From the sequence record AY135739: a stretch of 32,684 nt of DNA; one strand, given 5' to 3'. Made by a program: the position numbers and the translations under genes. The stretch comes from Escherichia phage Wphi. Of the stretch, positions 5,158-24,480 are shown one piece after another; positions within the stretch are counted from its first letter, which is position 1, and every line of letters begins with the position of its first letter. The notes under the pieces were generated by a model that saw only the letters and a list, made by a program, of their open reading frames with translations, was not told the origin of the DNA and ran no database searches.

Positions 5158-5901
5158 ATGACGAGTCCCGCACAGCGCCACATGATGCGGGTCTCGGCAG
5201 CGATGACCGCGCAGCGGGAAGCCGCCCCGCTGCGACATGCAACTGTCTATGAGCAGATGCTGGTTAAGCTCGCCGCAGACCAGCGCACACTGAAAGCGAT
5301 TTATTCAAAAGAGCTTAAGGCCGCGAAAAAACGCGAACTGCTGCCGTTCTGGTTGCCGTGGGTGAACGGCGTGCTGGAGCAGGGCAAAGGTGCACAGGAT
5401 GACATTCTGATGACGGTCATGCTGTGGCGTCTGGATACCGGCGATATTGCCGGTGCGCTGGAGATTGCCCGTTATGCCCTGAAGTACGGTCTGACCATGC
5501 CGGGTAAACACCGCCGCACCCCGCCGTACATGTTCACCGAGGAGGTGGCGCTTGCGGCCATGCGCGCCCACGCTGCCGGTGAGTCTGTGGATACCCGCCT
5601 GCTGACGGAGACCCTTGCACTGACCGCCACGGCAGACATGCCTGATGAAGTGCGCGCAAAGCTGCACAAAATCACCGGTCTGTTTCTGCGTGACGCTGGT
5701 GATGCCGCCGGTGCGCTGGCTCACCTGCAACGTGCGACACAGCTCGACTGTCAGGCAGGCGTCAAAAAAGAGATTGAACGACTGGAGCGGGAGCTGAAAC
5801 CGAAGCCGGAGCCGCAGCCCAAAGCGGCCACCCGCGCCCTGCGTAAGACCCGGAGCGTGACACCGGCAAAACGTGGACGCCCGAAAAAGAAAGCCAGTTA
5901 A
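5158..5901 (+). CDS. M: terminase small (endonuclease) subunit
   Basis: 247-aa ORF directly after N, matching P2 gpM position and size; basic K/R-rich C-terminus. Confidence 0.85.
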   Translation: MTSPAQRHMMRVSAAMTAQREAAPLRHATVYEQMLVKLAADQRTLKAIYSKELKAAKKRELLPFWLPWVNGVLEQGKGAQDDILMTVMLWRLDTGDIAGALEIARYALKYGLTMPGKHRRTPPYMFTEEVALAAMRAHAAGESVDTRLLTETLALTATADMPDEVRAKLHKITGLFLRDAGDAAGALAHLQRATQLDCQAGVKKEIERLERELKPKPEPQPKAATRALRKTRSVTPAKRGRPKKKAS

Positions 5902-20975: not shown

Positions 20976-22138
20976 TGCTGGACGCGCTGACATTTGATGC
21001 AGGCAGTACGCTGACGCCGGATTACATGCTGATGCTCGACAGCAGGGATATTACCGGCAATATCAGCGACCGTCTGATGAGCATGACCCTGACGGATAAC
21101 CGGGGCTTTGAGGCTGACCAGCTTGATATTGAACTGAACGATGCCGACGGGCAGGTCGGGCTGCCGGTTCGTGGCGCTGTCCTGACGGTGTATATCGGCT
21201 GGAAAGGTTTTGCCCTAGTATGCAAAGGGAAATTCACCGTTGATGAGGTTGAACACCGGGGCGCGCCGGATGTGGTCACCATCCGCGCCCGGAGTGCAGA
21301 TTTCCGCGGGACGCTCAATTCCCGCCGTGAAGGCTCCTGGCATGACACCACGCTCGGTGCGATTGTTGAGGCGATAGCCTCCCGTAACAGACTGGAAGCC
21401 AGTGTCGCTCCGTCACTGGCCGGAATTAAAATCCCGCACATCGACCAGTCGCAGGAGTCTGATGCGAAATTCCTGACCCGTCTTGCAGAACGCAACGGCG
21501 GTGAGGTCTCTGTAAAAATGGGAAAACTGTTGTTTCTCAAAGCGGGGCAGGGGGTGACGGCCAGTGGTAAAAAAATCCCGCAGATTACCATCACCCGCAG
21601 CGACGGCGACCGTCATCATTTTGCGATTGCTGACCGTGGAGCTTACACCGGCGTAACGGCAAAGTGGTTACACACAAAAGACCCGAAGCCGCAAAAGCAG
21701 AAGGTAAATCTGAAACGCAAAAAGAAAGAGAAACACCTGCGCGCACTGGAGCACCCGAAAGCGAAACCAGTCACGCAGAAGAAAGCGCCAAAAGTACCGG
21801 AAGCGCGCGAAGGTGAATACATGGCAGGTGAGGCTGACAACGTTTTTGCCCTGACCACGGTATATGCCACGAAAGCGCAGGCCATGCGCGCCGCTCAGGC
21901 GAAGTGGGATAAGCTGCAACGGGGCGTTGCGGAGTTCTCCATCAGTCTGGCTACTGGTCGGGCAGATATTTACACGGAAACGCCGGTCAAAGTATCAGGC
22001 TTTAAGCGCGTCATAGACGAGCAGGACTGGACAATCACTAAGGTGGCACATTTTCTCAATAATAGCGGCTTCACGACGTCCTTAGAGCTTGAGGTCAGGC
22101 TTTCTGATGTGGAGTACGAAACAGAAGGTGATGAGTAA
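20975..22138 (+). CDS. D: tail protein D (late gene D)
   Basis: 387-aa ORF, TAATG overlap with U; contains a lysine-rich low-complexity linker; P2 gpD position and size. Confidence 0.85.
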   Translation: MLDALTFDAGSTLTPDYMLMLDSRDITGNISDRLMSMTLTDNRGFEADQLDIELNDADGQVGLPVRGAVLTVYIGWKGFALVCKGKFTVDEVEHRGAPDVVTIRARSADFRGTLNSRREGSWHDTTLGAIVEAIASRNRLEASVAPSLAGIKIPHIDQSQESDAKFLTRLAERNGGEVSVKMGKLLFLKAGQGVTASGKKIPQITITRSDGDRHHFAIADRGAYTGVTAKWLHTKDPKPQKQKVNLKRKKKEKHLRALEHPKAKPVTQKKAPKVPEAREGEYMAGEADNVFALTTVYATKAQAMRAAQAKWDKLQRGVAEFSISLATGRADIYTETPVKVSGFKRVIDEQDWTITKVAHFLNNSGFTTSLELEVRLSDVEYETEGDE

Positions 22139-22219
22139 AGTGTTTCTTTTATCTGTTTGTTTTATAAGGGTAATTTAACTAAAATGGCACCATCAACAAA
22201 ACCGGAAGAGGTGCTCGCG

Positions 22220-22438
22220 ATGTTTCATTGTCCTTTATGCCAGCATGCCGCACATGCGCGTACAAGCCGCTATATCACTGACACGACAAAAGAGCGTTAT
22301 CATCAGTGCCAGAACGTGAATTGCAGTGCCACGTTCATCACTTATGAGTCGGTACAGCGATACATCGTGAAGCCGGGAGAAGTCCACGCCGTAAGGCCGC
22401 ACCCGTTGCCGTCAGGGCAGCAAATTATGTGGATGTGA
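22220..22438 (+). CDS. ogr: late gene transcriptional activator, Cys4 zinc-finger
   Basis: Internal ATG at 22220 gives 72 aa MFHCPLCQHAAHARTSRY...CQNVNC with a C-x2-C...C-x4-C motif; GGAAGAGG RBS; matches P2 Ogr size and position after D. Confidence 0.85.
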   Translation: MFHCPLCQHAAHARTSRYITDTTKERYHQCQNVNCSATFITYESVQRYIVKPGEVHAVRPHPLPSGQQIMWM

Positions 22439-22448
22439 TCACAAAAAT

Positions 22449-22476
22449 AGCCCCTCAGTTGAGGGGCTTTATTTAT
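22449..22476 (+). terminator. rho-independent terminator downstream of ogr
   Basis: Perfect hairpin AGCCCCTC-AGTT-GAGGGGCT followed by TTATTTAT, 10 nt after the ogr stop. Confidence 0.65.
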
Positions 22477-22481
22477 GGTCG

Positions 22482-22505
22482 ATGTGGACGCTATGTGGAC
22501 AGTGG
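22482..22505 (+). repeat. tandem ATGTGGAC repeats, putative integrase arm-type binding sites (one arm of attP)
   Basis: ATGTGGACGCTATGTGGACAGTGG read from sequence; a related tandem copy occurs at 22679-22698. Confidence 0.45.
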
Positions 22506-22565
22506 TTGATATAAATCCATTTATATCATCAGGTTAGGTGCTTTTTTGTGACACCATCCCTGTCT

Positions 22566-22593
22566 TCCCCCACATGATGTGGGGGTTTTTTTT
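22566..22593 (+). terminator. hairpin plus T8 tract, terminator-like element inside the attP region
   Basis: CCCCCA-CATGATG-TGGGGG followed by TTTTTTTT; no phage gene ends here, so it may be the phage-borne copy of a host target-gene 3' end and terminator. Confidence 0.45.
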
Positions 22594-22678
22594 ATCAATC
22601 ACTTACATCGGTTTCCGTAAGAAAACAGTAACTTAAGAAAACCTATAAGGGACTGGAAGGGCTACAAAGTTCTGAGAG

Positions 22679-22698
22679 TGTGGACACTATGTGGACAC
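22679..22698 (+). repeat. tandem TGTGGACA repeats, putative integrase arm-type binding sites (other arm of attP)
   Basis: TGTGGACACTATGTGGACAC immediately downstream of the int stop codon; same motif as 22482-22505. Confidence 0.45.
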
Positions 22699-22711
22699 TC
22701 AGAAGGGAAAT

Positions 22712-23692
22712 TTATAACGTCACTCCGCCTTTTAGAGGATTCAGCGCGACGGCATTTTGCAGGTAGTCAGGCGCAAGGTGCGCATAGGCCATCGTCTGCT
22801 GAATGCTCGCATGTCCCAGAATCTGTTGCAGTGCGATTATATTGCCCCCATTCATCATGAAATGGCTTGCGAATGTATGCCGCAGGATGTGGGTTGCCTG
22901 ATTGGGTGGTATATCTGGCTTCACTCTGCGTAAAATCCCGCAAAACTTCTCATAATCAACTTTGAATAATTTAGCGCTGGCCTCCTCTTTAACTTTTTTC
23001 TCCAGTTCCTCAGAAATCGGCACGGTTCGCTTTTTACCGTTTTTGGTTTTCAGGAAGGTAACCCTGCAATTTGTAATCTGTGCTGGTTTTAGCGTGGCAA
23101 CTTCCGTCCATCTTCCTCCAGTGCTCAGACATAAAAGTGCGACAAGTAAGTCATCACCAGCCAAAACATTTAACAGTTTTTCGATTTCTGCTTTTTCCAG
23201 GAACGTCATTTCAGGGTTGGCCTCCGCCAGTGGCGGCAGTCCGTGAATTGGGTGTTGCCCGGAAAATTCATCCAATTGAATTAATTTTGTGAACATGCCG
23301 GATAATCGGTACATGTCACGGTTTATCGTTGCGGCACTGATACCATCACGTAGTCGCATGGAACGATAATCCATCAAAGCTCTTTTGCTCATCCGGCTCA
23401 CTGGTATATCACCTATGCCGCTGATGGTTTTGAGCAGATGATTAAACTCTTTTGTTCCATGCTCGTGGTTTTGCCCGTGATATTTCCACCAGATGTCCAG
23501 CAACTCACTCAAAGTTCGGCGATCTGCTCGCTGACCTGCCCATTCTTTCTGGCTGGCGTAGGCGATTGTGTATCGCTCAAATGCTACAGCCTCAGCTTTT
23601 CTTTCAAATTTCCTGCGGATGCGTTTTCCGTCGCGACCGCGAGGTCTAATGTCCACTTCATAGCGTCCATCATCGAGCTTCTTAATTGACAT
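22712..23692 (-). CDS. int: tyrosine integrase (P2-type)
   Basis: Start placed at ATG 23690-23692 (MSIKKLDDGRYEVDIRP...) with GAGGG RBS, 326 aa; the ORF-track start at 23722 (336 aa) is the alternative; C-terminal ...HILRHTFASHFMMNGGNIIALQQILGHASIQQTMAYAHL... is the tyrosine recombinase catalytic region. Confidence 0.85.
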   Translation of the reverse strand: MSIKKLDDGRYEVDIRPRGRDGKRIRRKFERKAEAVAFERYTIAYASQKEWAGQRADRRTLSELLDIWWKYHGQNHEHGTKEFNHLLKTISGIGDIPVSRMSKRALMDYRSMRLRDGISAATINRDMYRLSGMFTKLIQLDEFSGQHPIHGLPPLAEANPEMTFLEKAEIEKLLNVLAGDDLLVALLCLSTGGRWTEVATLKPAQITNCRVTFLKTKNGKKRTVPISEELEKKVKEEASAKLFKVDYEKFCGILRRVKPDIPPNQATHILRHTFASHFMMNGGNIIALQQILGHASIQQTMAYAHLAPDYLQNAVALNPLKGGVTL

Positions 23693-23761
23693 AAGAAAGC
23701 CCTCTGACGCTGTGTTCACCATCTTGGTAACAAATGGTGAAAATGTAATGTTTATAGAGTG

Positions 23762-24055
23762 TTAACCAGTCTGTTTTTCGGAGTGGTCTGATTCTGTTGG
23801 TTTTTGCCCAATGTGTGCGAGAGCCGGCGCGATCTGACCAGCTTGTGGTGACGTATCACCAGTCATTAACCAGAGCGTATATTTTTTAAATAAAGGCGTA
23901 TTTGTGACTCGCATAACGATGCTGAGACCAGGGTCTTTATGCCCACTTTCGTAATTTTTGACTGTTCCTAGAGCTATCCCGCTAATTTCGCTGAATTTCG
24001 CCTGTGTTAAGCCTTCTGCTTTCCTAATCGCTTTCAGTTTTTCGAATGTCTGCAT
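23762..24055 (-). CDS. C: immunity repressor C
   Basis: 97-aa ORF transcribed leftward just upstream of int; N-terminal helix-turn-helix-like segment; position and size as P2 C. Confidence 0.75.
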   Translation of the reverse strand: MQTFEKLKAIRKAEGLTQAKFSEISGIALGTVKNYESGHKDPGLSIVMRVTNTPLFKKYTLWLMTGDTSPQAGQIAPALAHIGQKPTESDHSEKQTG

Positions 24056-24207
24056 TTGACAGTAACCTATTGGTGACTTATATTCCCGTCAAAAGGTTGT
24101 GTATTGGTGACCTTTTGAGTGTGTTAGCCAGTCCCTAGAAAGGACAGGGGCGACCTAGAAGGGACTGGATCTAATAAGGGTAACACGAAAGCAAAAAGGG
24201 CTAATCA
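24056..24207. promoter_or_regulatory. C/cox developmental switch region (divergent Pc/Pe promoters and operators)
   Basis: 152-bp gap between divergent C and cox containing a 10-bp direct repeat TATTGGTGAC (24068-24077 and 24103-24112) and an 8-bp inverted repeat CCAGTCCC...GGGACTGG flanking two CTAGAA copies (about 24122-24162). Confidence 0.45.
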
Positions 24208-24480
24208 ATGGAAGTCAATGACTATGTGATTCAGTACCCGATTGATGCGGTACATACGGTTAAGTTTGCAGAGTTACTTGGTAAGCCAGAAACGGCTGTA
24301 GTCAAGATGGTAAAAGAGAATAAATTGCCAGTTATTGAGCTTCGTGATCCAAGTAAGCCGAACGCTCGTGTCGGTGAGAAGTGGGTTTTCATTCCAGAGT
24401 TTAATCGCGCTGTACGAGAGGCGTTTTATAACCGACCAGTTGAACAGCGTGATGCATGGCTTTTGTGGATGGGGTTGTGA
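24208..24480 (+). CDS. cox: Cox excisionase/repressor of Pc
   Basis: 90-aa ORF, first rightward early gene opposite C, as P2 cox. Confidence 0.7.
   Translation: MEVNDYVIQYPIDAVHTVKFAELLGKPETAVVKMVKENKLPVIELRDPSKPNARVGEKWVFIPEFNRAVREAFYNRPVEQRDAWLLWMGL

Follow-up and report, generated by a model that had tools for sequence, protein, structure and literature searches.

Organization of the ogr-int region

The DNA analyzed here (the window, that is, the whole stretch of 32,684 nucleotides) has the gene order of P2-type phages, with D followed by ogr, a 273-bp spacer, int, C and cox. A first-pass annotation of the spacer, made from the sequence alone, had described two clusters of tandem TGTGGAC(A/G) repeats and, between them, a strong hairpin followed by eight T residues. 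Both elements were found where they had been placed: the repeats form two + strand pairs with 11-bp spacing, 173 bp lie between the clusters, and a terminator scan locates the hairpin and its T-run in that interval. The features of the region are the following.

22220-22438, + strand: ogr, late-gene activator, the last gene before attP (Pfam Ogr_Delta, E = 1e-21; annotated as ogr in fiAA91-ss, WΦ and P2)
22449-22475, + strand: rho-independent terminator of ogr and the F operon, outside the core (terminator scan, hairpin at 22449-22468; aligns with a P2-annotated terminator)
22483-22500, + strand: P arm, two direct TGTGGAC repeats 11 bp apart, predicted arm-type Int sites (aligns with the P2 protein_bind feature "Int P arm")
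22507-22535, no strand: predicted P-side bending region, palindrome TGATATAAATCCATTTATATCA plus the IHF-like sequence TATCATCAGGTTA at 22523-22535 (aligns with the P2 IHF site)
22550-22596, + strand: 47-bp common core GACACCATCCCTGTCTTCCCCCACATGATGTGGGGGTTTTTTTTATC, identical in attP, attB, attL and attR (genome search; four-way comparison)
22554-22576, no strand: predicted strand-exchange (overlap) interval (right bound, a polymorphism at 22577; left bound, attP identity in a relative)
22567-22593, + strand: cpxP/CpxQ rho-independent terminator, 8-bp stem, 3-nt loop, T8 (terminator scan; fold)
22593-22605, + strand: predicted IHF site at the right edge of the core, perfect consensus TATCAATCACTTA (one of only two matches in the window)
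22606-22675, no strand: probable binding region of the excision factor Cox (aligns with the P2-annotated Cox site; sequence evidence)
22679-22696, + strand: P' arm, two direct TGTGGAC repeats 11 bp apart (aligns with the P2 feature "Int P' arm")
22712-23692, - strand: int, tyrosine integrase, 326 aa (Pfam Int_N, E = 3e-28; Phage_integrase, E = 1e-19)
23762-24055, - strand: C gene, between int and cox
24208-24480, + strand: cox, switch repressor and recombination directionality factor (Pfam Phage_Cox, E = 9e-24; annotated as cox in WΦ)

The identity of the phage was established over 2.2 kb by comparison with record AJ245959.1 ("Bacteriophage WPhi ogr (partial), int, c and cox genes"). The two sequences match at 2216 of 2220 bases, and none of the four mismatches lies within 22439-22711. 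With only four differences per 2220 bases, the window must derive from WΦ or from a near-identical phage. The attP region by itself is 95-99% identical to that of many Peduovirus genomes; the locus for a WΦ-specific assignment is cpxP-fieF, in agreement with the published WΦ site (PMC3032704). WΦ belongs to the P2-like phages and encodes a tyrosine integrase of the heterobivalent kind; the gene for such an enzyme adjoins the spacer, as it does in attP regions of the lambda and P2 type.

Arm-type repeats and the integrase

The copies of TGTGGAC lie at 22483-22489 and 22494-22500 (P pair) and at 22679-22685 and 22690-22696 (P' pair), all on the + strand. Four of the five copies present in the 32.7-kb window thus fall in the ogr-int spacer, and the two 19-nt repeat units are identical at 18 of 19 positions. 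The P' repeats are moreover bracketed by the inverted sequences CTGAGAG and CTCAGAA. When the region is aligned with P2 attP (AF063097), the repeats coincide column for column with the P and P' arms bound by P2 Int, which upholds the earlier proposal that they are arm-type Int sites flanking a core. As in other heterobivalent attP sites, they stand on both sides of the core and are unlike it in sequence. All four read TGTGGAC(A/G) and hence belong to the P2-type arm class and not to the 186-type, the published consensus sequences being tgTGGaCa and tgccGCCActt, respectively (PMC3448106).

The repeats are conserved well beyond closely related phages. Arms, IHF consensus and palindrome are retained in diverged prophages of Kosakonia, Yokenella, Citrobacter, Kluyvera and Pseudocitrobacter; the P arm repeats are kept in the attR of prophages from other genera, and across genera the diverged P' sides all keep TGTnGAC and ATGTnGACA. 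A joint change of both arms to TGTAGAC, seen in one Citrobacter element, would fit a single protein reading both of them.

The int gene is 981 nt long in the WΦ record. Its start at 23692 (MSIKKLDDGRYEV...) is the one used in that record and in RefSeq prophage annotations, and it aligns with residue 1 of P2 Int; the longer start at 23722, which the mechanical open reading frame (336 aa) would allow, is probably not used. WΦ Int is 52% identical to P2 Int overall, the figure for the N-terminal arm-binding stretch being 35 of 42 residues (83%). In P2-type integrases the N-terminal domain reads the arm sites, and a variable core-binding domain sets site specificity (PMC3448106). The N-terminal likeness of the two enzymes would fit this published mode of arm reading.

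Further observations on repeats were made in passing. Over the whole window, tandem pairs of one 7-mer at 10-11 bp spacing number 13, against 4.8 expected (simulation maximum 16), and some of these pairs, besides the arm sites, may be other operator-type repeats. Two of the prophages compared (L048 and L096) carry a single TGTGGAC on the P' side, one 11-bp unit between the tandem repeats apparently having been lost; with a one-repeat P' arm, they may be incapable of excision.

The core duplicates the cpxP terminator and part of CpxQ

To look for a host counterpart of the core, as the first-pass annotation had proposed, the segment 22506-22678 was used as query against complete E. coli genomes. 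The search returned a 47-bp match past the stop codon of cpxP, present in all 5426 genomes. In K-12 the core begins 24 bp past that stop (24-70 nt) and lies inside the cpxP-fieF spacer; it is identical to the bacterial attB, again as in heterobivalent systems. The suggestion that the core would carry the terminator of a bacterial target gene could in this way be made specific, the gene being cpxP. The hairpin (22567-22585) has eight pairs, six of them G-C, and is followed by T8 at 22586-22593; its folding energy is -16.5 kcal/mol (z = -2.65).

The small RNA CpxQ spans almost the entire 3' UTR of cpxP (PMC9438474), and the core certainly overlaps it: it comprises the cpxP terminator and about the 3' two-thirds of CpxQ. 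The main seed, which is the 5' seed described for this RNA (PMC6755755), is outside the phage-borne part, on the host side, and the RNase E site of CpxQ likewise remains there. An Rfam scan of 22300-22900 gave no match to CpxQ, yielding solely sub-threshold, terminator-driven matches (Hrs1, 31.8 bits against a gathering threshold of 56.4). A 40-nt version of the core was found without mismatch in 116 DNA stretches from species-representative genomes of many genera, including Klebsiella, Citrobacter, Enterobacter, Kosakonia, Salmonella arizonae, Yokenella, Kluyvera and Mixta. The target is therefore conserved far beyond E. coli, and it is so because it consists of the CpxQ sRNA and its terminator.

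A published link between the WΦ attB, or any phage attachment site, and CpxQ was not found in the literature. The explicit connection made here is a modest by-product of the analysis that may be absent from earlier work. Any functional consequence of the overlap is speculative. One could imagine that the core is not a neutral pad and that WΦ-type phages target and partly replace the CpxQ gene, rewriting the loop of K-12-type hosts from C to A, a change present in 152 natural lysogens, and releasing a phage copy of CpxQ by read-through. We regard this as improbable. The phage-borne 3' two-thirds of CpxQ lacks a promoter, includes the Hfq-binding terminator and lies downstream of ogr; if the idea were true, read-through of the late operon, in the lytic cycle or from attR, could yield an RNA that resembles CpxQ or titrates Hfq.

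Integration products in bacterial genomes

Matches to attP occur in 790 of the 5426 complete E. coli genomes, in each of them at two or more places. None is intact: among the matches listed, one type covers query positions 1-157 (P arm and core) and the other 111-272 (core and P' arm), so that all 790 lysogens are split at positions 111-157, as prophage boundaries within attP would be. The attL side reads cpxP, core, P' arm and int, and the attR side ogr, P arm, core and fieF. The repeats thus appear at both prophage ends, the P arm by fieF and the P' arm by cpxP. The first-pass annotation had named two outcomes that would speak against an attP, namely the lack of a host core at prophage boundaries and the lack of the repeats in attL and attR; both were looked for, and neither was encountered. 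Overall, about 15% of complete E. coli genomes have a prophage or a remnant at the cpxP-fieF site.

For a comparison of attP, attB, attL and attR we took E. coli RL465, which contains a complete 33.6-kb prophage between cpxP and fieF (the attR of NZ_CP033635.1 is broken by IS4). The sequences switch partner exactly at the ends of the 47 bp.

Some occupied sites show decay or rearrangement. In NZ_CP033635.1 (L005, 3959-5305) the IS4 copy lies between ogr and fieF at attR, and in NZ_CP032237.1 (L128) all that is left between attL and attR is a 1.9-kb remnant comprising int, a truncated C and ogr. Citrobacter amalonaticus P55 (NZ_JBALIF010000010.1; L042, 1049-2926) carries between cpxP and fieF an integrase-free insert of 1.8 kb, delimited by two core copies, with complete P' and P arms of the variant TGTAGAC type and the conserved palindrome; its coding content is a 339-aa open reading frame without Pfam match and a 154-aa Fic/Doc protein, and nothing else. 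This insert could be a deletion remnant or a mini-element movable in trans by the Int of a helper phage. A hybrid is present in Kosakonia oryziphila (L009, about 5420-5780), where a single core has a TGTAGAC-type P arm on its left and a TGTGGAC-type P' arm on its right; to judge from the sequence, it looks like the junction of two different P2-like prophages arranged in tandem at cpxP.

Position of the strand exchange

One position of the core, 22577 in the hairpin loop, distinguishes phage and host in part of the strains: hosts of the K-12 type carry C, and the phage window carries A. Its distribution was surveyed with 98-nt attL and attR queries carrying C. At attL, C was found in none of 739 genomes (0/223 with the P' side of the window type, 0/516 with a variant P' side). 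At attR, the host C was found in 152 of 646. Direct reading of strain M217 gave A at attL and C at attR. Phage records with C at this position number 0 of 43, and all 117 matches in the species-representative set, which includes a few E. coli records, carry A.

As the host C is confined to attR, strands must be exchanged to the left of 22577. It follows that at attL the phage supplies the cpxP/CpxQ terminator from the loop onward (loop, 3' stem half and T-run), and that the gene is regenerated unchanged; the regenerated terminator differs at one loop base, and only for hosts of the K-12 type. A left bound is offered by the attP of one relative (L096), which is identical to attB only from 22554 onward. 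Together, these bounds suggest that exchange takes place within 22554-22576. The only dyad with a 7-bp spacer available for this interval, GACA-CCATCCC-TGTC (22550-22564), is a candidate core site that we infer from sequence. This bound from population genomics is likewise a modest by-product and may be missing from the literature.

Two other placements were considered and rejected. The hairpin stem might itself provide the Int core sites, with the loop as overlap (CCCCCA-CATGATG-TGGGGG); the polymorphism at 22577 segregates cleanly to attR and is thus outside the overlap. Alternatively, attR might owe its C to a phage allele if the crossover lay on the right side of the polymorphism; no phage record among the 43 has C, and attL never has it. 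A core with one mismatch is seen in about a quarter (~26%) of non-lysogen E. coli records, the checked K-12 strains included. The frequency of C in attR, 23.5%, is close to that of one-mismatch attB in these records, which also counts against the reverse reading of the polymorphism.

Predicted IHF sites and candidate Cox-binding sequences

On the P side, the IHF-like sequence at 22523-22535 has one mismatch to WATCAANNNNTTR, and the palindrome block ATAAATCCnTTTAT is conserved in all P sides compared and aligns with the IHF-protected region of P2. On the P' side, eight diverged sequences were compared (two from E. coli phage or prophage, one each from Kosakonia and Yokenella, two from Citrobacter and two from further loci). 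ATCAAnnACTTA is invariant in all eight, and the invariant blocks of the set are T8-ATCAAnnACTTA, AAAnCA and the two arm repeats; the first of these blocks corresponds to the perfect IHF consensus at 22593-22605. The block AAAACAGTAACTTA at 22622-22635 (AAAnCA and a nearby CTTA) is kept, irrespective of Cox type, in the majority of the diverged P' sides and might possibly be a second host-factor site.

The cox product, which is 45% identical to P2 Cox, should act on 22606-22675, to judge from the alignment. This interval contains 9-bp repeats TAAGAAAAC at 22618 and 22634, and it diverges in a prophage that has a 99% identical Int together with a different Cox (82% identical) and C (56% identical). 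At 22641-22657 lies the 17-nt motif ACCTATAAGGGACTGGA, which recurs with 16 of 17 identities in the Pe-Pc region, at 24153-24169, and is a candidate Cox box common to attP and the Pe-Pc switch. In the window, CTANAARGGAC occurs only at 22643, 24135 and 24155, all three in the attP or Pe-Pc regions. In the variant prophage CRE1493, a co-varying counterpart of the motif could be discerned only weakly.

The Pe-Pc region itself, between C and cox, has at 24135-24169 an imperfect direct repeat, CCTAGAAAGGAC / CCTAGAAGGGAC, with 20-bp spacing, the second copy of which, when extended, matches attP 22641-22657. Cox probably uses these repeats as its operators in the developmental switch. In 2009, Ahlgren-Berg reportedly observed binding of WΦ Cox to an imperfect direct repeat of 12 nt at Pe-Pc and weaker binding to a repeat of 9 bp in attP. 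The latter would presumably correspond to the two TAAGAAAAC copies.

Alternative explanations

A chance arrangement of repeats and a hairpin in an intergenic spacer would be in keeping with the count of TGTGGAC, which is not over-represented as a 7-mer (5 observed in the window, 4.0 expected). The arrangement is another matter: in 500 first-order Markov simulations of the window, two tandem pairs of one 7-mer, spaced 10-11 bp and lying within 300 bp, never arose; by a looser criterion, any 7-mer four times within 250 bp, the figure was 15 of 500. Taken with the conservation of the elements across genera amid a diverged background, and with 790 natural integration products, this leaves chance with no credible part. 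Alternatively, the TGTGGAC repeats could be operators through which C, Cox or Ogr control int or ogr, and not Int arm sites. They do adjoin the 3' ends of ogr and int, and tandem direct repeats of 11 bp are also typical of the C and Cox operators of P2-type phages (PMC3936717). Yet they lie downstream of both genes and not at promoters, no promoter-like site being present in 22100-22900, and TGTGGAC is absent from the Pe-Pc switch region. They also coincide with the sites annotated as Int-bound in P2 and remain invariant where C (56%) and Cox (82%) diverge and Int is 99% identical. An operator function in place of arm sites is thus highly improbable.

The hairpin could also be, in the first place, a terminator of the phage that backs up the ogr terminator against read-through of ogr and the late operon, its match to the host being secondary. 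On the + strand it makes a good terminator, located 100 bp beyond that of ogr, and at attR it would have the further effect of protecting fieF from read-through out of the phage. However, identity with the host runs over 47 bp, well past the hairpin, and ends where attL and attR switch partner; the hairpin is the universal cpxP terminator of the Enterobacteriaceae (the 116 stretches and the 117 loop matches given above), and P2 carries an unrelated core in the same place. A primary function as a phage terminator is consequently unlikely, while a secondary role of the hairpin as a terminator in the phage is compatible with its being part of attP.

Assignment as the WΦ attP and proposed mechanism

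With a probability of about 0.97, we assign 22479-22704 as the attP of coliphage WΦ or of a near-identical phage. Nothing contradictory to this assignment was met; binding by Int, IHF and Cox would follow from homology with the footprinted sites of P2. By the same homology, the N-terminal domain of Int would bind the four arm-type TGTGGAC repeats, and its core-binding and catalytic domains would act inside the 47-bp core. Bending of the DNA by IHF at one or two sites would allow the arm-bound Int to reach the core. The phage would then be inserted between cpxP and fieF by strand exchange at the identical 47 bp past the cpxP stop, and Cox, bound between the core and the P' arm, would direct excision.

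The WΦ attP is an already characterized element, which the first-pass annotation had not recognized as a published site. The E. coli W genome paper places prophage Wphi1 (P2 type) at cpxP-fieF (PMC3032704), the integration site of WΦ was identified earlier, with MG1655 coordinate 4104392 (PMC3448106), and the pIT5 integration plasmids employ WΦ Int/att (PMC12765450). As this is a textbook-type attP, from an integration system with 25 years of study behind it and current use as an engineering tool, the present finding adds little to it. Its practical value is one of annotation, as it fixes the identity of the phage (WΦ) and its integration locus (cpxP-fieF).

Comparison with known systems

The closest reference is the WΦ attP, Int and Cox sequence deposited by the Haggård-Ljungquist laboratory (AJ245959). 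Its attP is identical and the cpxP-fieF locus is shared; nothing substantive differs, the four substitutions of the window being outside attP. Next come Yersinia phage L-413C, which is reported to have the WΦ core (PMC3448106), fiAA91-ss and other Peduovirus members with a WΦ-type core, whose attP regions are 95-99% identical. Among these phages the immunity and Cox modules vary, as does the Cox-binding spacer.

In P2 (AF063097) the P arm, the IHF site, a 27-bp core, the Cox sites and the P' arm lie between ogr and int. The window shares the order and orientation of these elements and has TGTGGAC arms at the same 10-11 bp spacing; its palindrome falls in the IHF-protected region of P2. The cores, in contrast, are unrelated in sequence, with 47 bp derived from the cpxP terminator in the window and 27 bp at locI in P2. 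The Cox region of the window is also unrelated to that of P2 and lacks the P2 cox-box consensus, and the perfect IHF consensus on the P' side of the core has no counterpart in P2.

As regards the target, WΦ resembles the phages that integrate at the 3' ends of sRNA and tRNA genes, such as P2 at cyaR, 186 at tRNA-Ile and Fels-2 at ssrA (for the tRNA and ssrA cases, PMC3448106; a P2-type prophage is listed at "cyaR RNA" in E. coli W, PMC3032704). In all of them the core copies the 3' end and terminator of a highly conserved RNA gene, and as this part is duplicated the gene is rebuilt after insertion. A distinguishing point is that the RNA targeted by WΦ is an sRNA derived from a 3' UTR, CpxQ, which shares its terminator with an mRNA.
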